Part shown: positions 1-63,573 of the stretch, in pieces
Numbering within the stretch: the stretch's first letter is position 1
Layout: each line of letters starts with the position of its first letter
Assembly: GCA_963555755.3 (NCBI GenBank)
Contig: OY820905.2
Coordinates: 800,001 to 864,000, forward strand
Length of the DNA: 64,000 nucleotides
Direction of reading: 5' to 3'
Source of the DNA: Nitrospirales bacterium
Lineage (GTDB): Bacteria; Nitrospirota; Nitrospiria; Nitrospirales; UBA8639
Made by a program: the position numbers and the translations under genes
The notes under the pieces: generated by a model
The model's database searches: none
Seen by the model: the letters and a program-made list of their open reading frames with translations, nothing else
Told to the model about the DNA's origin: nothing

Positions 1-864
1 AAACGTGTAGCCCAAGAAGTCGAAGGCGGTGATTGGATACCCCAGACGCCGATCGGCATCTTTGCAGTATACAATCTGGGTCTTCTCCGAATGGAGTTCA
101 AGCCCCCAATCCGCAAAGCGCCGCGCTAACGCCCCTTTCAGATGTTCGGCCTGTTTCCGGGTGCGACAGTGACACACCCCATCGTCGGCATACCGCTCAA
201 ACGGGATGTGCGGATAGTACCGCCTCATCCACGCATCGAAGACATAATGCAGAAACAGGTTCGCCAGCAACGGACTGACGACACCCCCTTGCGGCGTGCC
301 TCGGGTCCGCTCCCGCACCGTCCCGTCCAACACTTGCTCCGGAGCTTTCAACCATCGCTCGATATAGAGCAGCACCCACGTAGCTTGGGTATGCCGACGC
401 ACCATGGCCAGCAGCCGGTCATGGTCGATGGTGTCGAAGAACCCTTTGATGTCAAGGTCCACCACCCAGTCATAGCGCCAACACCGCCTGCGCGCCTGCC
501 CAATCGCTTGATGCGCTGATTTCCCCGGTCGGTAGCCATAGGAATCCGGGTGAAAGTGGGCTTCCACTTCCGGTTCCAGGGCCTGTTTGACCACTGTTTG
601 CGCAATCCGGTCTGCCACGGTCGGGATCCCCAACGGACGGCTGCCGCCGCCTGCCTTGGGAATCTCCACCCGCTTGACCGGCAGGGGCCGATAACTCCCA
701 GAGGCCATCCGGTTCCAGAGCTTATAGAGGTTGTTGTCCAACCTCTGCTCAAAGTCCGCCACCGTCTGGCCATCCACCCCAGCCCCACCCTGATTGGCTT
801 TCACTCGTTTGTAGGCTTCCCACACCTGACGTTGGGTAATGGGAAATGGCTTGGCCTGAGTCAC
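1..864 (-). CDS. ltrA: Group II intron reverse transcriptase/maturase (partial, open at window edge; several substitutions at usually conserved sites)
   Basis: Manual translation from GTG 864: [70 protein letters not shown]. Absent from the ORF track because there is no stop in the window. Confidence 0.92.
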
Positions 865-1411
865 GAAAGTCCTCCCATCGCTGGTTGCTCTCTTCCCTCA
901 AGCCCGATAAGGCAACCCCTTCGCTCCAGCTCCATTACAGAACCTTCTTCACTACTACGAGTTGCTCCGCCCCTGTACCCCGCCTCGGTACTCTCACGCT
1001 TGTGGGACCTCCACTTGCGTTTCTCCCTTCGCATCGGGGTGACAGGTTCCCACGTTCTCCACAAGAGCCTGGACCGCCTTCTCGCCGCCTTCATGCCGGA
1101 CGCCATCTGGCCAGTAACCAGGTGCCCGCCAGATTCCTCCCGGAGTAACGATCCCCCCCCGGTTTTGACGTCATCCCTACGCTTTCGACACGTCCTCAGC
1201 GGTTCACTCACGTTCGACTCGACGGTCCATACCTGACAGGGTCTTGCCCTGCCTTTTCCCATTGCGCTCACCACCACCTCTCTTAAAGGCAGCAGCCATG
1301 GGTGGTTTGAAGCCTCCGCCTGTACAGCGACTTCGAGGGGCCTCCCCTCATCTCTTGTGCAGCATGGCTGCACAAAGGACTGACGTCCTTTTGTGCGCCT
1401 TCGTGGCGCAC
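1..1411 (-). mobile_element. Group II intron, RmInt1-like (bacterial class D); 3' part runs off the window start
   Basis: 5' boundary GTGCGCC at 1411 on the minus strand, then a domain I-III-like leader and an RT ORF. Predicted EBS1 (1147-1153) and EBS2 (1178-1182) pair with the upstream exon. Confidence 0.9.
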
Positions 1412-2216
1412 GATCATCGGCATACCGCACGATCTTGGCTCGGAGAGAGCGTCCAACCTCTGGACGGGCCCAGCTCCGATCCACCTCATGCAAGTACACG
1501 TTCGCCAAGAGCGGGGAAATCACGCCGCCCTGGGGTGTACCCTTCCGAGAGCCTTTGCCCCCACTCACGCGCGTCGTTCCGTGTCCAGCTTCCTCAACCA
1601 CTGACACCGTTAGCCATTGCTTGATGAGGCCTAAGACGGCCCCATCCGCAATCCGTTTCGCCACGGTGGCCATCAGTTTGGCATGGGGAATGCTGTCGAA
1701 ATACTGGGACAGGTCGGCATCAAGGACAGAGCCGTACCCCGCGTGCAGCGCTGTGGCCACCGCATCCGCCGCATCATGGGCAGACCGCTGTGGACGAAAC
1801 CCATACGAGGTCTCGCAAAAGTCCGCCTCGAAGATCGGCTCAATGACCAGCTTGACGGCCATCTGCGCCACTCGATCGGTGATGGTCGGAATCCCGAGGG
1901 GCCGGTGACCCCCATCAGGTTTGGGGCGCCACACCCGTCGCACCGCTTGTGCGCGATACCGCTTACTCTTCAGCTCGGCTTGCAGCTTCCTGAGAAATGC
2001 TTCTCTCCCTTCTTCCGCGTCGATGGCCTCCCACGTGCGCCCGTCTATTCCAGGTGCCCCGTGGTGGGACCGGACCAAGGCATAGGCATGACTCAGAATG
2101 TCCGCCTGGGTGACCTTGTCGTACAACGCATAGAAGCGAAAGCCAGATTCAGACTTGGTCTTCCGATACAGCTTCCTCTGTAGTGTCCTGATCGTACTTG
2201 GGGTTGATAGCGCCAT
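1412..2216 (-). pseudogene. Group II intron RT, interrupted one base after the YADD codons
   Basis: [57 protein letters not shown], then the inner intron. Confidence 0.9.
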
Positions 2217-2706
2217 GGCAATCCCCGGATCCTCCACTCGTCGAAAGCGTGAACAAAGTAGGGTCCCTTCCCTCGGACCGGGTTATGTTGTCCCAGGCCC
2301 TCTAACGGTACTATGAACCCCTCCGACTCCCACGACGGCCCTCAGCGATTTCGGTCTCCCTTATACGCCTTGGTTGCGGGTTCTGCGCCCGCACCGTCGT
2401 GGGTCTCCCGTCCTGCACGGTGTCTCTTCCGCCACATGCCGCCCCTGCTACCCCGGAAGATCCTGAGGGTGGGTGTTCGTTCTACTCCCTCAGACAGCGG
2501 CCTTCCCCTTCTGACCACAGGGTCGGCATCTCCAAATACGTCACGAGGCGACGTCTAGGTTCGCTTGCGCTACGGCCTGCAGCTTTGCCCATGGGAAACT
2601 TCAACCCCTGATTACTCAGACGCTGCTTCCCGGTACTAGAAAGGTGTACGAACAACTCCTTTCGCGGGACTTTAACCCGCTAGACACACCGCCGATGACG
2701 GCATGC
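1412..2706 (-). mobile_element. Outer group II intron (5' portion), host of the inner intron; class not assigned
   Basis: RT ORF preceded by about 490 nt of intron-like leader (..TCTAGCGGGTTAAAGTCCCGC..). The 5' end is approximate and looks degenerate (GCATG instead of GTGYG). Confidence 0.75.
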
Positions 2707-2849: not shown

Positions 2850-4571
2850 ATCTATCGGACACCTCATGTGAATCAACTGGCCTTTGAAGAGTTCGTCTTG
2901 CCCTTTGGCGGCAAACTCCGCAGTGCCAACCGGTGGGTGATGCTCGCGAAGCACATTCCCTGGGCCGAAGTCGAAACAGCGTACGCGCAGCAGTTTTCCC
3001 CAGACGACATCGGGTCTCCCGCCAAGTCCTCGCGGCTCGCGTTGGGGGCCCTCATCTTACAAGCGCGCCTGGGAGTCACGGATCGTGAACTCGTGGCACA
3101 GATTGCCGAGAACCCCTCTCTGCAATATTTTTTGGGTCTCATGGCGTATCAAGCAGAGGCGCCGTTTCATCATTCTCTGTTGACCACCTTCCGTACACGG
3201 TTTCCTGACGAGAGCCTTGAGAAGATCAACGAAGCCATCGCGCGGCGGATGGCTGACGCCCAGCCAACGAGCGATGAACCAAGAGAAGCGAAAGGAGAAG
3301 GCGAGGCCGCTCCTCCGAAAGGCCAGCTCCTCATTGATGCCACCTGTGTGCCCGCCGATATCAAATATCCCACCGACCTGCACCTCCTGCATGACGCCCG
3401 CGAGAAAACCGAAGAGCTCATCGATCACCTGCCTGCCGCTCGGACCACGGCCCAGAAGAAGCCTCGCACCTATCGGCAGAACGCCCGACAGGATTATTTG
3501 CGCATCGCAAAGAGCAAAAAGCCGAAGAGCCAGAAACTCCGACGAGGGATTGGCAAACAGCTCCGGTTTCTCCGGCGCAAGCTTAGCGCAATGGCCGGCA
3601 TGGCCCAAGACGGATTACTTGTCACCTTACCCAAGACACGCGACCGCCAGCTGCTCGTCATTCAAGAACTGTATCGGCCACAGCGCTGGATGTACACGCA
3701 GCGCTGTCATCGTATCGCCGATCGGTTGGTCAGCCTCCGCCAGCCGCATGTCCGTCCCATCGTGCGTGGCAAAGCCGGGTGCCCGGTCGAATGTGGCGCC
3801 AAAATCTCGGTCAGTCTGGTGGCGGGGGTCAGTTTTGTGGATCGCATCCGGTGGGATGCCTACAACGAATCCCTGGATTTCGTGGGACAGCTCGAAGCCT
3901 ATCGTCGACGGTTTGGCCATGATCCGGCTTCGGTGCACGTGGACCAAATCTACCGCACCCGTGCCAATCGTCAGTTTTGCCACAGCCAAGGCATTCGCCT
4001 GTCGGGACCACCCTTGGGCCATCCCCGGGTGATGAATGAGTCCACCGCCGAGCAGGTGAAGCAAGACCAGCAACAAGGCCGAGACGATGCCACGGCCCGG
4101 ATGGCCATTGAACCTAGAAACGGCAGTTGGGCGCAAAAAAGCCGTGTAAGATATTGGTGTGCATGGTGAAATACAAAAAGTCGTAGTCACCTCGGTGGTG
4201 ATAAGACATTTTTGTATTTTATCAGGTGCGCCAAGAGCTTGCGCGGACTTTTGTGATCCAATTGCTGTTTCTAGGTTGAAGGCAAGTTTGGGCAAGGCAA
4301 ACGGCGGTTTGGGTTAGGACGCATGATGGCCAAGCTTGCCATCACCTCCGAAGCGATGAGTCAGATCTCGTTTCTGGTGATGAACTTGGAGCACCTCCTC
4401 CTCCGAGTCGGGTCTTGTTTGTGTTGGGCTTGCTGCCCGAGCTGGAAGAGTACGGAGAAAGACCTTCTGGGGGCCAGCTGGCTCAAGCTGAAGCCGGATT
4501 GTCGGGCTCGTAGTGGTAGCAGAGTTGAAGCCCGGTGGGTCTGGAGTCCGCAATTGATTGCGGCTTGGTGA
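2850..4571 (+). pseudogene. IS5-family transposase, split by MITE-A, start codon apparently lost (ATC)
   Basis: LPFGGKL..NRWV, DATCVPADIKYPTD, QPHVRPIVRGK. Removing 4113-4280 restores AIE|GKFGQGKRRFGL. Confidence 0.9.
4113..4275. mobile_element. MITE-A (163 bp), empty form
   Basis: TIR CCTAGAAAC/GTTTCTAGG with TTGAA duplicated on both sides; related copies start at 12392, 19230 and 41698. Confidence 0.92.
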
Positions 4572-11901: not shown

Positions 11902-12391
11902 AGCCTTCCATCACTCCTTTAAAAATGCCCAAATGGGCAAGACCAGCATCATCCCTAGCGGCTGAGGTAAAGTCAATAATGTCTCTATTTTTTCTCTTAT
12001 TGACTGTGGAGCCCATTTCACCTTGTTCAGGCCTTTACCCTTGATATCGTGATCTGTATTGTTGCAGATGATCGGTCAGGTGGTTCTATCCCGACCTCAA
12101 GGAGAAAAAGAACGCATGAATCAGCCAAACTATATTTTCAACAAAAGCGAGGACCAGCCAGAACGTGATCGACTCAAATTGATTGAGCAATACCACGATC
12201 CGCGCACGCGCGAGCGACTACAACAGGTCGGCATGAGTGCAAGAGGGACATGTCTCGAGGTCGGACCGGGCGCGGGGTCCATCATGCGATGGATGGCCCG
12301 AATCGTGGGTCCCCATGGGCATGTGATGGCCATTGAATTGAATCCCCGTTTTCTTTCCCGCAACACACTTCCTCATCTCACCCTCATTCAA

Positions 12392-12820
12392 CCTAGAAAC
12401 GGCAGTTGGGCGCAAAAAGGCCGTGTAAGATATTGGTGTGCATGGTGAAATAAAAAAAGTCGTGGTCACCTCAGTGGTGATGAGACATTTTTTTATTTTG
12501 CCAGGTGCGCTCAGGGTCCGTCACGAAATAACCAGTACAATTGGGAGGCCCAGATTTGTGATCGGGGCAAGGCGCGACGAGGGAGCAGAGCGGGGCTCTG
12601 TGACCGAGGAGCAACGCCGCCCCGGGCCAAAGATGGGCCTCCCCGGAGGGCCGGACGCTTTTGGGCTCCGCCAGCGTCGCTCATCGCTTCCATACTCCCG
12701 GCATACGCGCTCTTCGCTCCTTGGCTCGCTCCAAAATCGTCTCGGCCAATTGTACTGGTTATTTCGTGACGGACCCTAAGAGCTTGCGCGGACTTTTGTG
12801 ATCCAACTGCTGTTTTTAGG
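12392..12820. mobile_element. MITE-A containing MITE-B (12514-12776, 263 bp)
   Basis: TTCAA TSD; inner element has a long TIR GGGTCCGTCACGAAATAACC with TCA/TAA flanks. Confidence 0.9.
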
Positions 12821-12900
12821 TTCAAGGCGATATCAATAAGGTGGCACTCCCATCAAAGACCTTTCAAGTTGCCCACGCTCGGTTTACGTTGATTCATACA

Positions 12901-13114
12901 GGGAATGTTGAAAAAAGCCGCCAGCGGCGTTCTCGCCATTTTGCCGTGCTCACGTACTATGAGTACGCTCCGCGCGTCAAAAGGGCTGCGGCCTTGCTGG
13001 ATAGACCCTTCGGAAAGACTCAGGGCATGCTTTTTTGAACATTCCCTCCCACTGACGATGCGTGGCTCATCTGGAGCTTTTATTGGCTGTTGGAGTGCAA
13101 TATTCAACAGGCCC
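12901..13114. mobile_element. MITE-C (core plus tail)
   Basis: GGGAATGTTGAA..TTCAACAGGCCC with ATAC duplicated at the flanks; several related copies in the window. Confidence 0.88.
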
Positions 13115-13584
13115 ATACGCAGAGCTACCGACGCGCATTGAAAAAAATCATTGAAGCCCTTCGACCCGGGGGTTGGCTTGTACTGGAAGAACCAGACTTC
13201 TCCGTCGCACGGATAGTGACGGGACCCAAGGGGTTAGGACGATCCGTTCAGCGAGTGAATGAAGCCATCCAACACATGTTCTCCAACGCGGGGCTGGACC
13301 CAGCGTTCGGGGTCAAACTTCCCGGTCTACTCCAAGAAATGGGCCTCGTGAATCTCGCTGTGGATAATGATACGTCGCTTGTCCAAGGCGGGGCCCCCAT
13401 GGCCACGATTATGAAACTATCTGCTCACCAATTAGCGGTGAAATACCTCGCGACGGGTCGAGTGACCAAGACCGACCTGACCCGCTATGTCCGTTTTTCC
13501 GAAGATCCCGATTCCTGGGCCGTGTATCACGCTACCGTAGCCGTCATGGCCCAAAAACCTCGAGGCGTATCAACCAAGACCAAA

Positions 13585-13961
13585 GGGCTCGCGAAACAAT
13601 AACTTCCAATGTTTGGGCGCCGATCCATCCCGTCTGGCGGCGTTGCTCGTCCTTTCCATACAGGGAATGTTGAAAAAAGCCGCCAGCGGCGTTCTCGCCC
13701 TTTTGCCGTGCTCACGTACTGAGAGTACGCTCCGCGCGTCAAAAGGGCTGCGGCCTTGCTGGATAGACCCTTCGGAAAGACTCAGGGCATGCTTTTTTGA
13801 ACATTCCCTCCCACTGATGCGAGCAGGCTTACCTGGAGCATCTATGGGTCATGAACCTGAAATATTCAACAGACCCATACAGAGGAGTATGCGCAGTCCT
13901 CGCGCCTTGCCAGACAGGTGCCTCAACACCCAAACATAGGAAGTTATTGTTGCGCGAGCCC
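13585..13961. mobile_element. MITE-D containing MITE-C (13663-13876)
   Basis: TIR GGGCTCGCG/CGCGAGCCC with CAAA flanks; inner element flanked by ATACA. Confidence 0.88.
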
Positions 13962-19025: not shown

Positions 19026-19229
19026 ACCTATTTCCTTTTTTCATTTCGACACCAGGAGAAATCTGTAGTTCGGTACGATGAAGATTTCTAACCTTCGTTC
19101 CAAACAAGGATTTCTCGTGAAGCCTTGGAAATTCCCGTGACTCCCCTGGTTTTCTCCTGATAACCAAATTAAGGACTTTGGTCCGGATATACCAGCCTCA
19201 GATTTTTTTTTGCATCTCTTGTTCATCAT

Positions 19230-19551
19230 CCTAGAAACGGCAGTTGGGCACAAAACAGCTGTGTAAGATATTGGGGTGCATGGTGAAATACAAAAGGTCA
19301 TGGTCACCGTAGGGTTCGCGCAAGAATACCTTCCCCTGTTTGGGCGTCGATCCATCCCGCCTGGCGGCGTTGCTCGTCCTTTCCATACGAGGAGTATGCG
19401 CAGTCCTCGCGCCTTGCCAGACAGGTGGCTCAGCACCCAAACAGGGGAAGGTATTCTTGCGCGAACCCTCCGTGGTGATGAGACATTTTTCTGTTTTGCG
19501 AGGTGCGCCAAGAGTTTGCGAGGACTTTGTGTTCCAAGTGCGGTTTCTAGG
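19230..19551. mobile_element. MITE-A containing MITE-D (19312-19468, 157 bp)
   Basis: TIRs of both families are present; the outer flanks differ (ATCAT / TTGAA). Confidence 0.88.
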
Positions 19552-19728
19552 TTGAAGATGATGTAAACTCACAACAAAAGCCGCGACCTCCTCTTCACGA
19601 TTTTTTCGTACCATAGCCGGAACCTACAAGAAGATGTACAAATAAGTCAATACTCATGCCTGACCCCATTACTGACCCCATTACCATATTATTCACCCAT
19701 TTCATGATCATCACCCCCTTCCACTTAA

Positions 19729-22921: not shown

Positions 22922-23330
22922 ATTTATGTGGAAAGCATTGCGAGTGAGAACGTTCCTTGTGTATTGCCGGAAGTGACCTTAGCCGATTTGCGCGAGATAT
23001 TCAAAGAGGTACCCTATCATCACCTGCTCGTTGCAGGAGATGGAGATCTGCTGGGTATTATTTCCAACAGAGATGTTTTGCGTATGTCCAGCCCGTTTAT
23101 CGATACCGCCAATGTTACTGTTCAAGATCAATCACTAGTAGAAACCAAGGCTCAAGATTTTATGTCCACACAATTAATCACCTTCAAAAAAGACACCTTA
23201 GTTGATACCGCTGCCATTCTTTTAATGGAGCATAATATTTCATGTTTGCCCGTTGTCTCTTAAGGATGATGCGATCGAAGGCATTCTTACTTGGAAAGAC
23301 ATGCTGAAATACTATGTGTATATTCGCTGA
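22922..23330 (+). pseudogene. CBS-domain protein with a 1-nt frameshift near 23260
   Basis: HHLLV..LLGIISNRD, ISCLPVVS then a stop; the shifted frame continues KDDAIEGILTWKDMLKYY. Could be a sequencing error. Confidence 0.75.
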
Positions 23331-23756
23331 ACTTTCTTGTTTTTCTAAAGCTTATTCCCGCCTCGGGCGTGGCTGAACCGCGACACCGAATCCAACTTTT
23401 GGGCGAGGGCTGTCTGAGTCCTTCGACAAGGCTCCGCGAGTTCCACAGACATACTACCCCGAGCCGAGCCAAATACCTCGGCCACCGGAACGAACCACGA
23501 AAAAATACAGATGGATTCCCGATTCAGGATGTCGGGAATAACAGCAAGAGCATTGGTAAGCCACAAGTATGGCTATCTCGTTATGCCTGCTGACCATTGC
23601 GTGGATAACGGCGGGAACATAACAGGCAGATTATTCCGATGAACAGAACCGGGAGAGGGTATCCTGGAATCCGCCTCATACGGTAAAGGGTCGAGTCTTT
23701 TGTTGAGAGTTTCAAAGATTGACGATCCCCATGGTGTTTTCTTCTTGAAGTTAACC

Positions 23757-24656
23757 CGCGTTGGGTGCGGCGGAGCTGGAGGCCCGAATCGACTTTTCGG
23801 CGAGGGCTGTTTGAGTCCTTCGACAAGACTCAGGATAGACTCCGCGAGTTCCCTCGCCATCTTATTCGGGGCGGAGGCGGAGGCACGACGGAGAGACTGC
23901 TTCTGAGCAGCCTCGGAGGGGCCGGGCACGGGCGAAAATCGACATAGGTAGGCGGTCACCCGCTTTCCCTGTCACACCACCGTACGTACGGGTCCGTATA
24001 CGGCGGTTCGGTGGGTTAAGCGATTGGCCACCAGGAGAGACTTCTCTCAACTGGTCACCCCTCGCCGGGCTTTCAACTGGGCGGTTCGCCGCGAGCGATT
24101 CGACACTTCCTCGTCAGTCCTTAGGGCTTCACCCCTATCCTCTGTCGGGAAGGCCAGGGTTAACTGGTTATTCAGCCGCTTGTCGCTCGTGAGTTCCGCT
24201 GCCTACATACCACTCCGTACCGTTCAGGCCTTCATCCCTGTCGGGACTACTATGCCCTCTGCTGACTCCTCCCGCCCGCTCTGAACTGATCACTCAGTTC
24301 TCAGTCTTGCTGCCAAGACAGACGAGAGGTCTCCCGAGGTACGCTCAACCGCTTTCAGCGCACGACCGCCAGATTTACACCCAATGCCCTTGATGGATAT
24401 GGACTTCGTGAAAACCAGCTCACTCGTCCGACACTGACTGCCTCGTATCTGGTTCTTGTTCATCGGCCCGCGCCTTTGCTCTACGCTTCCTTCAGACCCC
24501 GCCTCACGACGACGCCCTTGCGCTTCGCTATGACTTCACCTCCATCAGGTTGTCAAAGGGACTTGCACCCTCAAGCTGTTGAACATGCTCGGCACACTGG
24601 TTTTGGTTCCTTTTGCCGAAACAAAAGGAACTCGTCGCGCGGGGACGAAACCCCGC
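23757..24656. repeat. TIR-less hairpin-rich repeat H, split by a group II intron; degenerate relatives near 23360-23450 and 25170-25260
   Basis: Both halves are collinear with the copy at 33757-34071. Confidence 0.75.
23938..24597 (-). mobile_element. ORF-less group IIC intron (660 nt)
   Basis: 5' GTGTGCCGAGCATG; short domain V GAACCGCCGTATACGGACCCGTACGTACGGTGGTGTG; 3' end CGAT; no RT ORF; hairpin immediately upstream of the insertion site. Confidence 0.9.
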
Positions 24657-24713
24657 AATAAAGATGGATTCCTGATTACAGATGTCGGGAATGACAGCGG
24701 AGGATGGATCACC

Positions 24714-24881
24714 CTAGCTAAGGCGCTCGAGAAGCTCTCGGAGCACGATTTTTCGTTCCTTCAGATCTTGCCGAAACTCAAATTTTTCCGTATGCCCAAT
24801 TTCATCTCCAAGATCTGAAATGGCACCTGCCAGGACCGAACCCAATATCTCTTGTTCTTTGGTATTCAAACTTAGATCCAC
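24714..24881 (-). CDS. Small hypothetical protein, 55 aa
   Basis: AAGGAGG RBS then GTG; MDLSLNTKEQEILGSVLAGAISDLGDEIGHTEKFEFRQDLKERKIVLRELLERLS. Confidence 0.75.
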   Translation of the reverse strand: MDLSLNTKEQEILGSVLAGAISDLGDEIGHTEKFEFRQDLKERKIVLRELLERLS

Positions 24882-25373
24882 GGTAGTCCTCCTTTTCTGG
24901 AGTTTGCGGTGAACGGAACCTCATCCTATATTATCCGCGTGACACAGGTCCCCTTATTCCACTAAGAGATTGAATAATCTCAACCTCCATTCACCGAAGT
25001 CAAACACTAGGACGAAAGCCGAACTGCAGAAAGACGGCAGAAAATTTAGGGGCTAGAGGGTTTGCCCGAATTCCTTGGAGGCAACAAATTATTAAAGGAT
25101 CGAGTCTTTTGTTGAGAATTCCACAGATTGACGACCACCTACCGTTCTCCTTTCTGCACTCTCTCCCCGCCTTGGGCGCGGCGGAGCCTCCGTACGGAAT
25201 CGACCACTCTGGCGTGAACTGGCTGAGGCATTCGACAAGGACAGGCTTCGCGAGTTGCGCAGCTATATGATCTATCCCAAGCCAAACACCTTGGCCAACG
25301 GAACGAACCTCAGAACAGCAAAAGCGGATCCCCCCTATTTTTATGGGCCGCTTCACTCACTGATCGAAAACGG

Positions 25374-27527
25374 TCAGGTTGTTTCGCTTGGAACGGCCTT
25401 CATGGACAACGCAATACGCCGGCGTGGGATGTCGACCTCCAACACGGTCACTCTGACTTGTTGGTTGACCTGTACGACGGTATTGGGATCGCTGATAAAT
25501 CGATTGGCGAGCTGACTGATATGGATGAGGCCATCCTGATGCACTCCGATATCGACAAAGGCTCCAAAGGCTGTGACATTGGTGACCACTCCGGTCAGGA
25601 TCATGCCGGGTTTGACCTGCTCAATGGATTGCACCCCTTCCTGAAACCGCACCGCTTCAAATTGCTGACGTGGATCACGGCCAGGCTTAGCCAATTCGGT
25701 GAGAATATCGGTTAACGTTGGTTTTCCCACTTCCTCCGTGATGTATCGATGAAGGTCGATCGTGCGTTGTCGATCAGGGTTGTTCACCAGCTCCTTCACG
25801 GTACATCCCAAGTCTTTGGCCATCGCCTGTACCACGGAGTACCGCTCGGGATGCACCGCGCTGGCATCCAGAGGATGATCGCCATCGGTAATGCGTAAAA
25901 ATCCCGCGGCTTGCTCAAACGCTTTTGCTCCCAAGCGGGGCACTTTCTTCAAGGCCGACCGGCTTCGAAAGGGGCCATGTTCCTTTCGATAGACCACGAT
26001 GTTCGCGGCGAGTTGCGGACCCACACCAGAGACGGCGGTGAGGAGTTGCGGGCTCGCCATATTGACATCCACCCCAATCCGGTTCACGCAACTGATGACA
26101 ATATCATGAAGACGCTGCTTCAAGATCCCTTGATCGACATCATGTTGATACTGCCCGACCCCGATTGCCTTGGGATCGAGCTTCACCAGTTCGGCTAACG
26201 GATCCATGAGCCGCCGACCAATCGAAACCGCCCCACGCACGGTCACATCCTGGTCAGGAAATTCCTCTCGTGCCACCGCGGACGCGGAATACACGGACGC
26301 CCCGCTTTCGTTCACCATCACAAGGAAAATGTCCGATGGCAACGTCAACGTACGAAGAAACGTTTCGGTCTCCCTCCCTGCCGTCCCATTGCCAATGGCA
26401 ATAGCCTCAATCTTGAAACGCTCACACAACGCCACAATCGTATCCCCTGATCTGGAGGCGGACCCTGCTCCTTGATGAGGGTAGATTGTATCCGTATGGA
26501 GAAAATTGCCTTGCCGATCCAGACACACCACTTTACACCCAGTGCGAAACCCCGGATCGATGGCCAGCACCGTCTTCTGGCCCAATGGTGACGCCATGAG
26601 CAACTGCTGCACGTTTTGCGCAAACACCTCAATGGCTGTCTGATCAGCACGGGATTTTGTCAGCAGACGGGTTTCCGTTTCCATTGAGGGGGCCAGGAGC
26701 CGGGCAAAACTGTCCTGGATAGCCATGGTCACCTGAGCCGACGCCGGCCCGCTCCCTTTCAGAAAAAGGCGGTGCAGGAGAGACAGCGCTGCCGGTTCCG
26801 GCACCAACACACGAAAGGTCAGAAAGCCTTCCTGTTCGCCACGGCGCATAGCCAGAATACGATGCGAGGGCGCCGTCGCCACTGGTTCTTCCCATTCGAT
26901 ATAATCCCGAAACTTGCTACCTTGAACATCTTTCCCCCGCATCCCCGTCGTCTTGAATTTCCCGTGTTCCAAAAACAACGAGCGCATGGATGCACGAGCC
27001 TGCCGATCTTCGTTGATCCATTCAGCCATGATATCGCGCGCGCCAGCCAACGCCTCTTCCACCATCTCCACCCCCTGCTCTGGATTGAGAAACTTCCCTG
27101 CTTCGACCATGACATCTAACTGCGGATCTTGATCCCAGAGGCTCTGTGCAAACGGCTCCAGTCCCCGTTCTTTGGCGCTCATGGCGCGTGTGCGGCGTTT
27201 GGGGCGATAGGGTAAATACAGATCCTCCAAATCCGTCATCGACGTGGCAGCTTGCACTTGCTCTTGCAAACTGTCGGTGAGGTTTCCTTGTTCTTCGAGG
27301 GACGTCAAAATGGCGGACCGACGTTTGTCCAATTCTCGAAGTTGGGCCACTCGATCCCGAATGGAGGTAATGACGACTTCATCTAACCCACCCGTCACTT
27401 CTTTTCGATAACGTGCGAGAAATGGCACCGTTGCTCCATCATCCAGAAGATCCACCGTAGCCGTTACCTGCTTGATCGTAACACCCAGCTCCAACGCCAT
27501 CGTTCTGTCATGCAATTCTGATTTCAT
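25374..27527 (-). CDS. tex: Tex-family RNA-binding transcription accessory protein
   Basis: GATVPFLARYRKEVTG.LDE, DPGFRTGCK, NESGASVYSAS, IGVGQYQHDV, C-terminal S1 domain. Confidence 0.95.
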   Translation of the reverse strand: MKSELHDRTMALELGVTIKQVTATVDLLDDGATVPFLARYRKEVTGGLDEVVITSIRDRVAQLRELDKRRSAILTSLEEQGNLTDSLQEQVQAATSMTDLEDLYLPYRPKRRTRAMSAKERGLEPFAQSLWDQDPQLDVMVEAGKFLNPEQGVEMVEEALAGARDIMAEWINEDRQARASMRSLFLEHGKFKTTGMRGKDVQGSKFRDYIEWEEPVATAPSHRILAMRRGEQEGFLTFRVLVPEPAALSLLHRLFLKGSGPASAQVTMAIQDSFARLLAPSMETETRLLTKSRADQTAIEVFAQNVQQLLMASPLGQKTVLAIDPGFRTGCKVVCLDRQGNFLHTDTIYPHQGAGSASRSGDTIVALCERFKIEAIAIGNGTAGRETETFLRTLTLPSDIFLVMVNESGASVYSASAVAREEFPDQDVTVRGAVSIGRRLMDPLAELVKLDPKAIGVGQYQHDVDQGILKQRLHDIVISCVNRIGVDVNMASPQLLTAVSGVGPQLAANIVVYRKEHGPFRSRSALKKVPRLGAKAFEQAAGFLRITDGDHPLDASAVHPERYSVVQAMAKDLGCTVKELVNNPDRQRTIDLHRYITEEVGKPTLTDILTELAKPGRDPRQQFEAVRFQEGVQSIEQVKPGMILTGVVTNVTAFGAFVDIGVHQDGLIHISQLANRFISDPNTVVQVNQQVRVTVLEVDIPRRRIALSMKAVPSETT

Positions 27528-33756: not shown

Positions 33757-34071
33757 TGCGTTGGGCGCGGCGGAGCCGGAGTACCGAATCGGCCTTTTTG
33801 GCGAAGGCTGTTTGAGCGCAGCGAGTTCCTGAGCCATCTTATTCGGTGCGGAGGCGGAGGGACCCGGAAGAGAATGATCAAAACGTCCGTCAGCGGCGTT
33901 CTCGGCCCTTTGCCGTGCTCACGTACTACGCGTACGCTGCGCGCGCCAAAGCGCCTGCGGCCTTGCTGACGAACGTTTTGATCATTCTCTGGAGGGCCGC
34001 GCACAGGCAAAAATGGTTTGGGGTGCTTTTGCCGAAACAAAAGTGCCTCGTCATGCAGGGGCGAAACCCTG
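33757..34071. repeat. Repeat H containing a MITE-C-like core (33869-33990)
   Basis: Inner IR AGAGAATGATCAAAACGT with GGA on both sides; the intron target site is empty in this copy. Confidence 0.8.
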
Positions 34072-34100
34072 TTTTTAAATAAAAGGATTAATTGGAAAAT

Positions 34101-41595: not shown

Positions 41596-42552
41596 GGATC
41601 CGTAAAGAAATACGTGGGATATTAAGACGCTTAGATTTAGGTCAGATTTGGTCGATCTGAATGAGAGGAACCGGAAGAATAGTTGTGCTATTTTGAACCT
41701 AGAAACGGCAGTTGGGCGCAAAAAAGACGTGTAAGATATTGGTGTGCATGGTGAAATACAAAAAGTCGTGGTCACCTTAGGGCTCGCGCAAGAATACCTT
41801 CCCCGGTTTGGGCGTCGATCCATCCTGTCTGGCGGCGTTGCTCGTCCTTTCCATACGAGGAGTATGCGCAGTCCTCGCGCCTTGCCAGACAGGTGTCTCA
41901 GCACCCAAACCGGGGAAGGTATTCTTGCGCGAACCCTCCGTGGTGATGAGATATTTTTGTATTTTATCAGGTGCGCTAAGGGTCCGTCACGAAATAACCG
42001 GGACAATTGGGAGGCCCAGATTTGTGATCGGGGCAAGGCGCGACGAGGGAGCAGAGCGGGGCTCTGTGACCGAGGAGCAACGCCGCCCCGGGCCAAAGAT
42101 GGGCCTCCCCGGAAGGCCGGACGCTTTTGGGCTCCGCCGGCGTCGCTCATCGCTTCCATACTCCCGGTATGCGCGCTCTTCGCTCCTTGACTCGCTCCAA
42201 AATCGTCTCGGCCAATTGTCCCGGTTATTTCGTGACGGACCCTGAGGACCTGCGAGAAAATAACTTGATCAATATCGCGCCAAGATTTGGGTCGGATTTG
42301 GACGGAACGATTGAGAAACACTCGAGGCATAGCACAGCTATGGTGAGGGTTTTTCGATTGAGGCCCGTTCAAAGATGGCCCGAAGATTGGATGCGAGATT
42401 GTTCAAGTTATTTTCTCGCAGGTCCTAAGAGCTTGCGCGGACTTTTGTGATCCAACTGCGGTTTCTAGGTTGAAGGTTTCTCGATTGAAGATCGGCCAAA
42501 GATGGCCTGAAGATAAGATGTATACATGTTCCACTTATTTCTTTACGGATCC
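41596..42552. mobile_element. Five-element nested MITE stack: E' contains A (41698-42469), which contains D (41780-41936), B (41980-42242) and E (42246-42425)
   Basis: Each element has its own TIR pair; TTGAA TSD around A; TAA/TGA/TAA junctions around B and E. Confidence 0.88.
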
Positions 42553-42585
42553 TACTAATAACCGCCGAAAAAAAAGGGGAGGACT

Positions 42586-51976: not shown

Positions 51977-52444
51977 TTAGTCGTTGGGAGGTTCAAAGTG
52001 CCCGGATGGACGATTCTGCCAGGGAACTGTGGAGGTACGGGCTTGCTTAAGCAAGCTCCGCAAATTCACTTCAGCAGCGCGAAGCAGCTTAGGCTCTCCA
52101 TGGCGAAGCAAAGACGTGAGCAGCACGTACATTTCGCGATCGGTGTGACTGCCACGCAGGATACGTTCGGTCACGGGGTCGGGGGAATCAAGGTCAGGAT
52201 AGATAGATTCTTCTCCATCTGGATCTCCTAATACCAATTCAATCGCTTTCGGCGTGCTGTACAGCCAAGCCGGGGGAACCGCAAGCCCCTTGGCTAAGGA
52301 CTCGACCATTGACACGGATGGATCAAGAGCCCCGGTTTCAATCGACTCAATCGTCGAACTTTCCACTCCGGATTCTTTGGCTAATTTGGAGGTCGAAAAT
52401 TGACGAGCCTTGCGCCAAGCCTGAAGGGATTGATCAAGTGGCAT
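51977..52444 (-). CDS. XRE-family HTH regulator
   Basis: LA..SGV..STI..IETG..DPS...VE.LA..L. Confidence 0.82.
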   Translation of the reverse strand: MPLDQSLQAWRKARQFSTSKLAKESGVESSTIESIETGALDPSVSMVESLAKGLAVPPAWLYSTPKAIELVLGDPDGEESIYPDLDSPDPVTERILRGSHTDREMYVLLTSLLRHGEPKLLRAAEVNLRSLLKQARTSTVPWQNRPSGHFEPPND

Positions 52445-52521
52445 AATCTCAGATCATAACGAAAGAGTGGTCCCTTCGTCTACTCATTCATTTTTGAAAA
52501 TTGATGGATAGCCGACTCTTA

Positions 52522-52678
52522 GGGTTCGCGCAAGAATAACTTCCCATGTTTGGGCGTCGATCCATCCCGTCTGGCAGCGTTGCTCTTCCTTTCCATACGA
52601 GGAGTATGCGCAGTCCTCGTGCCTTGCCAGACAGGTGTCTCAGCACCCAAACATGTGAAGTTATTCTTGCGCGAACCC
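52522..52678. mobile_element. MITE-D, standalone (157 bp)
   Basis: TIR GGGTTCGCGCAAGAATAACTTC; TTA on both flanks. Confidence 0.9.
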
Positions 52679-53929
52679 TTAGGGCGTTGATGATTGGAAA
52701 TGAAACTGATGGACTTCGCCCGCATCGGGCATCTTTGATAGATCGCCATAGGGGGCCCCTACAACTAAGTGTGCGCCAACTCCATGCATCGAAAGACCAA
52801 AAAGATCCGCCGCACCGGTGGTCTTTGAGGGATTGGGAATAGTGAACTGAAGCTGGTTGGTGTGTTTATTGAAGACAAACACGGTACCCACATCAACACC
52901 CGCAGTATCATCCCCGGGAGCAGCAACCACATAGAAGTTTTCAAGAAGCCCAACCGCTTCCCCAAAATGACCTCCCTTTTGAGGGTTGGGCGCTTCGAAT
53001 TTCTTTTGAAATTTTCCCTGATGCGTAAATAGATACGCGGCGCCAGCTTCGCCATGGGTAATCTTGCGGCCTAGAGCTCCCACCAACAACGTGTCAGCAT
53101 CGCAGGCGAGAGACCATCCAAAATATTCATTGGTTTGCGGGTCGGGTGATTCGAGCGTTCGTATCAGCTTGCCAGTTTCAATATCAAACACAAACACCTT
53201 TCCATGATCGATGGGCTCAACGCCTCCCAATGGGGCACTAATTGCAAGAGTGGAACCCCAAAAAGCCAGGGTATGGCCAAATCCATCAGCCTTCCCATGT
53301 GAAGCTTCCGGCGCCAAGAACCTTTGAACCAATTGTCCAGTGGCAATCTCAAACACGTACACTTCTCCGACATCAAATTTTGTCGGCGAACTCGCGCCAG
53401 GATCTCCAATGGCCACCCATCGGCCTTGAGTGGCAACCGCGTGACCAAACACTGCCGCGTTCGAATTTGGACTGATGAACTCTCGAACAAGCTGCCCACT
53501 CTCCCGATCAAATAAAGCAACCATTCCTGACGATCGCCCCAACTTCCCCCTTCCCTTAGGAGCACCGACAATGACAAAACGATCAGTCAGTCCAACGGAC
53601 AAACCAAACATATCATCCCCGACAGGAGAAGGAGGCAAAAAGGAATGGAGGACCTTCCCGGTTTCTCGCTGAAACAAAAAGGCTTTGCCCATTTGCCCTC
53701 GGGACCCAGCCGCATGAGGTGAACCAACTAGGACCGAGTCCCCTTCGCTGGCCACGGCAAATCCAAACCCATCCAATAATGTGGGCTTCAAAGATTGAAG
53801 GCTGTGCCCCTGTTCATACCATGACTGTCCAAAAGCCTGGCCAATAAAAACCACCAGGAGAAGGAGCGGAAGCATGGATTGTAAAAAAACCAGAGATGGG
53901 GAACATATACGTTTTCTCATTTTGTACAT
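52679..53929 (-). CDS. Secreted FG-GAP repeat beta-propeller protein
   Basis: Signal peptide; about seven FG..V.....VGAP......G.V..F repeats. Confidence 0.85.
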   Translation of the reverse strand: MYKMRKRICSPSLVFLQSMLPLLLLVVFIGQAFGQSWYEQGHSLQSLKPTLLDGFGFAVASEGDSVLVGSPHAAGSRGQMGKAFLFQRETGKVLHSFLPPSPVGDDMFGLSVGLTDRFVIVGAPKGRGKLGRSSGMVALFDRESGQLVREFISPNSNAAVFGHAVATQGRWVAIGDPGASSPTKFDVGEVYVFEIATGQLVQRFLAPEASHGKADGFGHTLAFWGSTLAISAPLGGVEPIDHGKVFVFDIETGKLIRTLESPDPQTNEYFGWSLACDADTLLVGALGRKITHGEAGAAYLFTHQGKFQKKFEAPNPQKGGHFGEAVGLLENFYVVAAPGDDTAGVDVGTVFVFNKHTNQLQFTIPNPSKTTGAADLFGLSMHGVGAHLVVGAPYGDLSKMPDAGEVHQFHFQSSTP

Positions 53930-61146: not shown

Positions 61147-61494
61147 ATGCCACAGATTCACAAAAGCGGAGCATTCTTACAACAATGTTTCTCCGTCCAT
61201 CCGTTATCCCTCAGTGTAAAAATGCTAACGCTTCCGGACAAAATGGGAATAGCATGTGTCAATTGCAAGTTCCGCCACCGACTCACCATTGAAAAATTTT
61301 CTCGAATCATTGGAAATTTGGCATCGTTCGATGAAGGTGCGGCCACGAGCTTGGAATCCTGTATCAGCCAACATCAAGAAGCGATCCATGTGACTGAAGT
61401 CAGTGTAGGAAAAGATATCGTGCAATTCCGATGTCGCCACTGCAAAACAGGATTTCAAGTCCGCATCACCTTGTATGAAACCTACCAACCGTAA
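61147..61494 (+). CDS. Hypothetical protein with two CxxC motifs
   Basis: CVNC and CRHC, with an internally duplicated C..H motif. Confidence 0.7.
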   Translation: MPQIHKSGAFLQQCFSVHPLSLSVKMLTLPDKMGIACVNCKFRHRLTIEKFSRIIGNLASFDEGAATSLESCISQHQEAIHVTEVSVGKDIVQFRCRHCKTGFQVRITLYETYQP

Positions 61495-61495
61495 A

Positions 61496-61709
61496 GGGAA
61501 TGTTGAAAAAAGCATGCCCTGAGTCTTTCCGAAGGGTCTATCCAGCAAGGCCGCAGCCCTTTTGACGCGCGGAGCGTACTCTCAGTACGTGAGCACGGCA
61601 AAAGGGCGAGAACGCCGCTGGCGGCTTTTTTCAACATTCCCTCCCACTGATGCGAGCAGGCTTACCTGGAGCAGGTATGGGTCATGGACCCGAAACATTC
61701 AACAGACCC
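61496..61709. mobile_element. MITE-C with its core inverted relative to the tail
   Basis: Core is the reverse complement of the 13663 copy while the tail keeps the same orientation. Confidence 0.88.
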
Positions 61710-61794
61710 CTAAAGATAAAACCTCGACGGCATTTCGTATCTCGTCATGCAAGAGCCAAAAAATTACCAGCTTCCTTTTCCAGCCTCTTGGCAG

Positions 61795-61830
61795 AAAAAA
61801 AAAGAGCCGCCCCATGTGGAACGGCTCTTT
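61795..61830 (-). terminator. Intrinsic terminator after the peroxiredoxin gene
   Basis: GAGCCG..CGGCTC hairpin with a T-run on the minus strand. Confidence 0.75.
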
Positions 61831-61858
61831 CGGAAAAAACGAGGCTTGCGAGAAGGTC

Positions 61859-62494
61859 TTACTTGTTGGGCTGTGGCGTGAACCGAAGATAAGGCTTCAC
61901 GGCCCGGTGGCCCTTGGGAAATTTGGAGGGAATCTCTTCATCCTTCACCGCAGGAACAATGATACAATCTTCCCCGTCCTTCCAATTGGCTGGGGTGGCC
62001 ACCTGATGCTTGGCCGTCAGTTGTAACGAGTCCACCACACGAAGAATTTCATCAAAATTTCTTCCAGTCGAGGCTGGATAGGTGAGGGTCAGTTTCACCT
62101 TTTTGTCCGGTCCAATCACAAACACCGACCGCACGGTCATATTATCCAACGCATTAGGATGAATCATGTCATAGAGATTGGCAACCGTCCGGTCCGGATC
62201 CGCGATGATTGGATAACTCACCGTACAATTTTGCGTCTCATTGATATCGTTTATCCAACTTTTATGAGAATCCAACGGATCCACACTCACTGCTAACACT
62301 TTCACGTTCCGCTTTTTGAATTCATCGGAAATTTTTGCGACAGCACCAAGCTCAGTAGTACAGACTGGGGTAAAATCTTTGGGATGGGAAAACAAAATAC
62401 CCCACCCATCACCCAACCATTCATGAAAATTCACGGTGCCTGCCGTGGTTTCCGCCGTAAAATTTGGAGCCTCGTCACCTAAGCGAAGTGCCAT
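61859..62494 (-). CDS. 1-Cys peroxiredoxin (Prx6 type)
   Basis: FSHPKDFTPVCTTE, YPASTGRNFDE, VATPANW. Confidence 0.95.
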   Translation of the reverse strand: MALRLGDEAPNFTAETTAGTVNFHEWLGDGWGILFSHPKDFTPVCTTELGAVAKISDEFKKRNVKVLAVSVDPLDSHKSWINDINETQNCTVSYPIIADPDRTVANLYDMIHPNALDNMTVRSVFVIGPDKKVKLTLTYPASTGRNFDEILRVVDSLQLTAKHQVATPANWKDGEDCIIVPAVKDEEIPSKFPKGHRAVKPYLRFTPQPNK

Positions 62495-62737
62495 GATGTA
62501 TTCCTCCTCATTCAAAATAATATATCAGATGGATGATAGGATAGCCGAGCAGTCAAACCGCCAATCGGTTACCTTTTCAGACTACCAGAAAGTATACGCC
62601 CCCCTGAAAAACCGAGTCAACTAGGAGCCTGCGAATCCACGTTGGCGATCAAATCATACCCATGGGGACCCATCGTATTCCAGAAGATCCTCGGTTGCTC
62701 AGCCGTGAATTCAATTGAGGCGATCGACTTGATACTT

Positions 62738-63133
62738 TTAAAATCCATACTTCCACAGCACGGCCATAGTCCAGGGTTCGACGCACCGGTGTCGATACCG
62801 GCGCTCTTCCATCGGCATGATTCTAAGCAAATCAACGACATCGATGAGTTGAGGTTTGTGGACCAACCCTTTGCTCTCAAGAGTCCGAGACCGAGGCTTG
62901 AAATCACCGACACGTTTCCAAATGTCATCCTTGGCTTCACTGCATTCATAAAAGTTATTGTACGGAGCTGCAATATGTTCCTCCGTGATGGCCCGATCTC
63001 GTTTCAACTCCGAATTCCGTGTAGCCGGATACACCTGCCGATCCAAATCTGAACACTCAAAATTCTTGGGAGTCCTTGAAAATTCCTCTTCACTGACAAA
63101 CATCGAACACCCGGACAGTGCACCAGTGGCCAA
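62738..63133 (-). CDS. Hypothetical lipoprotein-like ORF; possibly a pseudogene (in-frame TGA upstream in the putative signal peptide)
   Basis: LSGC lipobox; start not resolved. Confidence 0.4.
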   Translation of the reverse strand: MATGALSGCSMFVSEEEFSRTPKNFECSDLDRQVYPATRNSELKRDRAITEEHIAAPYNNFYECSEAKDDIWKRVGDFKPRSRTLESKGLVHKPQLIDVVDLLRIMPMEERRYRHRCVEPWTMAVLWKYGF

Positions 63134-63261
63134 AACGCTCGGGAATACGCCAGGCAGGAGGAAGAATCACCTGAGACACAGTTGACCTTTTTAACCCAAC
63201 AAGAAATGATCGAACACACGCGTATATAACGTTACCCTACCAACCAAAATTTGGGATTTAT

Positions 63262-63535
63262 GGGAATGTTGAAAACGCCGCCAGCCTTCGCTAAAGCTAC
63301 GGCTGACAAGCCAGAGCGTTCCTTGCCTGCCGGAGCGGCTTCGCGCAGGCAGGTCGCCATTTTTCCGTGCTCACGTACTATGAGTACGCTCCGCGCTTCA
63401 AAATGGCTGCGGCCTTGCTGGATAGACCCTTCGGAAAGACTCAGGGCATGCTTTTTTGAACATTCCCTCCCATTGCCGATGCGTGGCTCATCTGCAGCTT
63501 TTATTTGCTATTGGAGTGAAATATTCAACAGGCCC
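63262..63535. mobile_element. MITE-C with two extra micro-inserts
   Basis: Matches the 12901 copy plus additional hairpins at about 63284-63310 and 63327-63353. Confidence 0.85.
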
Positions 63536-63573
63536 ATTATCATTGCCGAGTAAACGACACCCACCTTCTCCAC

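Follow-up and report, generated by a model that had tools for sequence, protein, structure and literature searches.

An ORF-less group IIC intron family at a fixed site of a dispersed host repeat in Nitrospirales

Results and discussion

An ORF-less group IIC intron lies downstream of the gene for Tex

The window (the whole 64,000-nt stretch of Nitrospirales DNA that was analysed) carries on its minus strand an intron embedded in a copy of a dispersed repeat, H (Table 1). The intron is read from 24597 to 23938, starts with GUGUG and ends with AU, and no ORF of at least 100 aa was found inside it on the intron strand. It matched three Rfam models above the gathering threshold, group-II-D1D4-3 (135.3 bits), group-II-D1D4-1 (56.8) and Intron_gpII (42.4). 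The predicted RNA fold was better than that of shuffled sequences (z = -2.38), with none of 20 shuffles equally good. Among 26 ORF-less copies, double changes were seen at 20 of 195 predicted consensus pairs, which supports the fold but is not a statistic, as the copies are kin and not independent; the paired changes persist in D1, D2 and D6. The window copy has a single private change, at the base of domain IV.

Table 1. Features of the intron locus and of repeat H in the window
Feature	Position	Strand	Basis
Group IIC intron without ORF, 660 nt, six domains	23938..24597	-	boundaries, Rfam, fold, pair conservation
EBS1 UGGU in the D1d loop, pairs with IBS1 ACCA	24414..24417	-	sequence and covariation across relatives
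Predicted EBS3 (A), matches T at +1 of the 3' exon	24463..24463	-	homology (Rfam alignment)
Domain IV stump: D4a and remnants of both RT-frame ends	24010..24190	-	
Domain V, 32 nt, CGC triad at 24005-24003 (domain V positions 3-5)	23976..24007	-	
Domain VI, bulged A at 23945	23940..23974	-	
Target hairpin, second hairpin of H: 10 bp, 6-nt loop TTTCGG, no U-run after it	24606..24631	-	
5' exon end: 4-nt spacer and IBS1 (ACCA); 8-nt tail CAAAACCA	24598..24605	-	
5' module of the occupied H copy	24598..24658	-	H 5' module profile
3' arm of the occupied H copy, with two small inserts	23758..23937	-	
Empty H copy, site at 34014, MITE-like insert in the third hairpin	33757..34073	-	
Truncated H-like 3' arm, upstream of the intron	25169..25310	-	
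Truncated H-like 3' arm, downstream of the intron	23361..23495	-	
Tex gene, same orientation, upstream of the intron	25374..27527	-	

Class C (group IIC) introns have a short domain V with a CGC triad. The window element has such a domain V (32 nt), together with a six-domain RNA, GUGYG...AY ends and a bulged A in domain VI. It also has an EBS1-IBS1 pairing of 3-4 bp behind a 5' exon stem-loop, which is how group IIC is defined in the available text of PMC7923331. By every feature that can be checked from sequence, the element is a IIC intron, neither terminator-homing nor attC-type. The original prediction, made from the letters alone, had described a 660-nt IIC intron with both ends and domain V but no RT, and proved correct base for base; the hairpin, the CAAAACCA tail and the complementary UGGU loop that it named are likewise all present.

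The intron occupies a fixed hairpin site within repeat H

The target consists of a stem, a 4-nt spacer, a 4-nt IBS1 and T at +1, the same layout as that described for the solved IIC-DNA complex in the accessible part of PMC10190682. The tail AAAACCA was found in 92 of 101 H sites, and the +1 base is T in 86 of 93 empty ones. The second H copy in the window has the same site unoccupied at 34014, as predicted.

The H hairpin was considered as an intrinsic terminator and rejected, as it has an A-rich tail and no U-run; a terminator search returned four terminator-like matches, the target hairpin not among them, one of which is a weak overlapping match just upstream. H was also rejected as an attC site and as a target of IIC-attC introns, which enter the bottom strand of attC at TTGT/T in integron or CALIN arrays: the H site is ACCA/T, and H does not have the attC end order. 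The genome encodes an integron integrase (C1:318997-319857, 405 bits), and a match to group II domain V lies 540 nt before it, but no H 5' module was found near the integrase. Since no U-run follows the H hairpin, read-through from the Tex gene may be a source of intron transcription. At the intron locus, genome G006 is without the segment corresponding to window positions 23330-25253 and keeps part of an H-like arm.

Intron copies entered H several times independently

A BLAST search of the genome (4.6 Mb in two contigs) recovered five full-length ORF-less copies, one 3' fragment and one 5' stub. The full copies are 91-97% identical, with 18-56 differences per pair, and no two are the same. 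All seven pieces adjoin the same site of H; as there are only about 100 H sites in 4.6 Mb, this position is not due to chance. With a profile of the H 5' module we obtained 110 matches, 99 of them chromosomal with a complete site, and an intron starts at 6 of these 99. The original prediction had proposed that a multi-copy repeat serves as a landing pad, and this holds for all seven pieces and for relatives in 12 other genomes. The findings that would have spoken against it, copies mainly behind ordinary terminators or a single ORF-less copy, were not encountered in the searches for copies and their flanks.

The idea that the intron is carried along with the repeat fared differently. In a comparison that left out 11 of the 99 H sites, occupied H copies differed from each other by 18.9 on average, as against 17.9 in random sets, and each occupied copy was closest to an empty one (7-11 differences, versus 14-22 to other occupied copies). 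Hitchhiking with H was therefore rejected, and several independent entries of the intron are indicated.

A domain V pair is broken in two of the five full copies, and a third has a broken pair beside domain V. The copy at C1:1014103-1014762 (L016) carries an AUGG-type EBS1 region of another subfamily at an ACCA site and is likely a recombinant. At C1:3780421, 1.2 kb from an occupied site, an H site holds a 7-nt insert resembling the intron 3' end, a possible scar. Bias toward the lagging-strand template was not significant in this genome (5/7 vs 36/93, p = 0.10). In genome CBDFIV, the intron lies on the locally G-rich strand at 14 of 18 loci, with one tie and three against, a count confounded by gene orientation.

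EBS1 covaries with the target in an H-specialised lineage

Relatives were collected with a 29-nt pattern from the 5' end of the lineage, by which divergent members are missed; it matched 76 genomic and 83 metagenomic stretches. Read by eye, copies lie in H in 12 other named genomes, one of which is labelled Alphaproteobacteria, has only three H matches and may have been binned wrongly. A script with conservative rules sorted the exons into 73 distinct H, 56 other, 16 tandem, 2 reversed and 7 too short, and misses some H sites, including one of the five in this genome. EBS1/IBS1 pairs were UGGU/ACCA (34), AUGG/CCAT (9) and CUGG/CCAG (4), in two insertion registers one base apart, each with its matching EBS1. 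Full pairing was absent from five H-site rows (two AUGG/CCAG, L162, L156 and the copy ending at C1:1014762 in this genome), so recombination among copies also moves sequence.

In a tree of the intron RNA, from which 9 of 92 rows were omitted for poor cover, 41 H rows and one terminator row formed a 42-row clade with support of 94/99, just below the starred level of the tool; the additional member, L176, sits behind an ordinary terminator. An AU test, run after removal of two long branches, did not reject the grouping of the H rows (p = 0.57). In the RT tree, the 11 H rows formed one clade (SH-aLRT 100), with RT identities of 83-100% inside the clade versus 54-60% to its sisters. The best solved relative of the cognate RT is the GsI-IIC RT (E = 2e-137), and the full-length RT of L047 has the RVT_1 and GIIM domains only, with no endonuclease domain, as in class C RTs.

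Relatives in Planctomycetota and Acidobacteria are found behind ordinary terminators. Members of a sister IIC clade (L145, L153, L161, L038, L061, L065 and L081) lie right behind hairpins at IS200-type ends and have EBS1 UAGA or UGGA. A Y1 transposase was identified upstream in L061 and L081, in both of the ORFs scanned (2/2); ORFs near eight loci were inspected. Sites of the G027 type were considered as ordinary terminators and rejected; the relatives there follow Y1 transposase genes.

The short form retains both ends of the RT frame

The first ~45 codons of the RT and its last few are still present in domain IV; these remnants meet at about 24048-24035, where a short hairpin closes them. 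The same type of deletion junction occurs in this genome, in CAVSTN, CAWDGE, CBDFIV and JAUIKP, and in metagenome contigs. Of the 36 short copies, 26 share it, falling into two length classes; a second junction, seen in five copies, may represent a separate deletion. An ORF-less intron that moves in trans is expected to be present more than once, with a deletion common to its copies and with sound EBS/IBS pairing, and this is what the short copies show (pairing in 4/5 copies here).

Employing PF00078, we found 35 RT matches in the genome and sorted 34 of them into eight clusters. None of the 35 is an intact cognate RT and none falls in the H clade; no present-day helper RT was found in this genome. 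The sole cognate trace is a C-terminal tail of 26-29 aa in the 3' fragment, which is interrupted by an IS. The nearest other RT belongs to a second, degenerate IIC-like intron (C1:3614222-3616205) whose 3' end adjoins an H copy of opposite orientation; this RT is 42-45% identical, reads YADE and has a frameshift.

The RTs of CBDFIV (432 aa) are intact, and this genome has identical short copies as well as head-to-tail arrays at 18 loci. It also has ORF-less copies in which the first 330 nt do not differ from those of an RT-bearing copy. On CBDFIV010000015.1 (L108, L118, L147-L149 and L170), arrays of up to three or more copies, ORF-less and RT-bearing mixed, occupy one H site. Two copies (L128 and L166) lie in H on the opposite strand.

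The original prediction had also suggested mobilisation in trans and called for a search for a full-length IIC RT. The first part is supported indirectly, by a stump with both RT-frame ends and by the shared 5' halves of the two forms in CBDFIV; the search for the enzyme yielded only the tail. Because no intact cognate RT is left here, help must have been past or transient, and past mobilisation in trans followed by loss of the helper would be the simplest reading.

In RNA run X12, contigs of sister copies only were recovered, one of which crosses an unspliced exon-intron junction. No spliced form was seen among the contigs of four public runs; intron-skipping joints were rejected as splicing, since they come from other H copies and also occur in DNA-type runs. 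Group II introns are present elsewhere too, with nested pieces at window positions 861-2673, 35 domain V matches genome-wide and one RT family of 14 copies.

Probable retrohoming of the short copies with a borrowed RT

We conclude that an internal deletion removed the RT gene from this intron, which occupies a fixed H site and probably got there by retrohoming with the RT of a full-length sister from the same H-specialised lineage. The intact six-domain RNA, the RT-remnant junction shared across genomes, the single site of all seven pieces, the independent host copies, the EBS1-IBS1 covariation and the H-specific RT clade argue for this reading. Against it stand the five H rows with incomplete pairing, L176 behind an ordinary terminator, the two copies in H on the opposite strand, the RNA-clade support just short of the starred level and the strand bias that did not reach significance. 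By analogy with the IIC mechanism, the RNP would dock on the H hairpin in single-stranded DNA, EBS1 and EBS3 would read ACCA/T, reverse splicing would follow, and the inserted intron would be copied from a replication-fork primer. The helper copy in this genome would later have been cut by an IS. Its five dependents are probably stranded now and beginning to decay.

An unlikely alternative is that the short copies spread by DNA recombination, full-length introns homing into H and then being gene-converted to the short form. The identical 5' halves of short and long copies in CBDFIV fit such conversion, as do mosaic haplotypes such as C1:1014762, with its patch of EBS1 unfit for the site. Short copies, however, outnumber long ones, pure short-short arrays occur, and paired changes in D1, D2 and D6 have been kept among ORF-less copies. 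Conversion accounts for the mosaics but not for the dominance of the short form in several genomes.

Still less probable is that the RNA acts in the manner of HYERs, as a protein-independent ribozyme cleaving or invading single-stranded DNA at H with no RT of its own, or that an unrelated RT of this genome helps it. The lack of an intact cognate RT among the 35 RT matches agrees with either version, and ORF-less IIC introns that hydrolyse single-stranded DNA are cited in the available text of 10.1101/2024.08.31.610620. Against both, the tail of the cognate RT persists in this genome, and copies are identical and arrayed where the cognate RT is intact and diverged where it has been lost; the frameshifted YADE enzyme, at its low identity, is a poor candidate for an unrelated helper. 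A single insertion into one H copy, later duplicated along with H, is very improbable: all copies do lie inside H, and many H copies bear other inserts, but the occupied copies form no clade, belong to different H subtypes and show two registers one base apart with matching EBS1.

The preferred reading, retrohoming with a sister's RT, places the lineage beside known IIC introns. Like the terminator-homing introns (B.h.I1, GsI-IIC and the E.r. intron), it has a short domain V with a CGC triad, a 4-nt EBS1 plus EBS3 and an RT closest to GsI-IIC, and it inserts behind a DNA hairpin and short spacer, as in the part of PMC10190682 at hand. Unlike them, it uses the hairpin of one dispersed repeat, with an A-rich tail and no U-run, its EBS1 reads ACCA or CCAT/CCAG, and the copy here has no RT. 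With IIC-attC introns such as S.ma.I2 it shares specialisation on one folded, multi-copy family of sites, so far as the available texts describe them (PMC4424553, PMC7923331, PMC8876359); unlike attC sites, H has neither their end order nor TTGT/T, and none of its 5' modules lies near the integrase.

TeI3 of Thermosynechococcus elongatus offers a precedent: its ORF-less introns spread in trans, and they share one domain IV deletion that left both ORF ends and have EBS variants with new sites, according to the accessible text of PMC2882425. TeI3, though, is a IIB intron homing by EBS1/2/3 sequence, whereas a IIC intron here targets a repeat and its helper is gone. HYERs, known to us through the citing text, are ORF-less IIC RNAs of similar build; this intron family differs from them in its signs of continued retrohoming.

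The IIC class itself is already known; what is real here is an ORF-less IIC family within a host-repeat-specialised lineage. To the three target habits of bacterial group II introns given in the available part of PMC4424553 (homing sites, terminators and attC), the lineage adds a host repeat on which it has specialised. The same text describes ORF-less introns of bacteria as rare and nearly always accompanied by a helper, whereas the short form described here has reached several genomes and, in this one, has persisted beyond the loss of its helper. Close relatives on terminators, IS200-type ends or H, each with matching EBS1, provide a natural series for the roles of hairpin, spacer and EBS1 in IIC specificity. 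We found no account of the lineage or of H in the literature covered, to which subscription papers and supplements did not belong; the HYER data set may include these introns.

Repeat H is likely mobile and neighbours toxin-antitoxin genes

H is about 190 nt long and multi-branched. It belongs to no Rfam family, the nine weak matches all being far below gathering. When 16 copies were folded, the strand complementary to the intron gave the better structure, with 15 covarying pairs as against 10 on the intron strand. One loop has the sequence TNC in 30 of 30 readable copies and therefore GNA on the complementary strand. GNA triloops mark folded DNA. A search for the H core pattern found it in 13 of 17 other genomes from the family, at 2-95 copies per genome, and in 0 of 233 others in the phylum sample. 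From this spread and range of copy number, H is likely mobile, and on that rests the predicted "renewable" nature of the landing pad. G002, a 110-contig assembly, has 95 H matches and no intron match.

In REP/RAYT systems, the repeat is a short hairpin that has a tetranucleotide foot and is linked to a RAYT transposase. H, as stated, is about 190 nt and multi-branched, and 1 of 17 Y1 transposase matches adjoins an H remnant. H receives other inserts at fixed spots: an IS in seven copies, a MITE in eight, and three small inserts in 10-13 copies each. The IS, of about 2.2 kb, lies in the third hairpin (C1:575914, 578551, 666042, 1962151, 3279412, 3298993 and 3639864), and its ORF at C1:1962151 encodes DruA and DDE transposase domains.

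A neighbour-gene scan covered 78 of the 99 H sites. Toxin-antitoxin (TA) genes of three families lay within 1.5 kb of H in 18 of 55 cases, compared with an expectation of 3.3 from 2000 shifts of position, none of which gave more than 10. No such excess was seen for five other repeat families, and a sixth, a short motif, gave 6 vs 3.1. Seven TA modules were queried in other genomes. Three higBA modules (L222, L238 and L247; identity 77, 93 and 88%) are bracketed by H both here and in G002, with at least one flank different; two modules were found without H (G005, 74%; G006, 70%) and two were not found. No H was present at the more distant TA matches L223-L225. Closely spaced H pairs are strongly oriented (+- 13, -- 8, ++ 7, -+ 1).

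Tentatively, this Nitrospirales family may have a cassette-shuffling system, so far undescribed, with H as its boundary site; as folded single-stranded DNA, H would bracket and relocate TA modules. The intron lineage would then be its parasite, a counterpart of the IIC-attC introns on a non-integron platform, with the sister lineage on IS200 ends. The TA enrichment, the higBA bracketing and the opposite-strand fold with GNA loops point in this direction, though ordinary recombination between repeats could also produce the H-TA picture, and no recombinase for such movement was identified. If the reading is true, H may move toxin-antitoxin genes, and the intron points to this element.

Contig C2 (14 kb) duplicates C1:4141231-4153174 plus one IS copy and starts inside H; it may be an excised circle or an assembly duplicate. 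Other dispersed repeat families, with 100-290 copies each, are represented in the window at 4106-4282, 12385-13961, 19223-19557, 41691-42554, 52440-52725 and 61489-63542.
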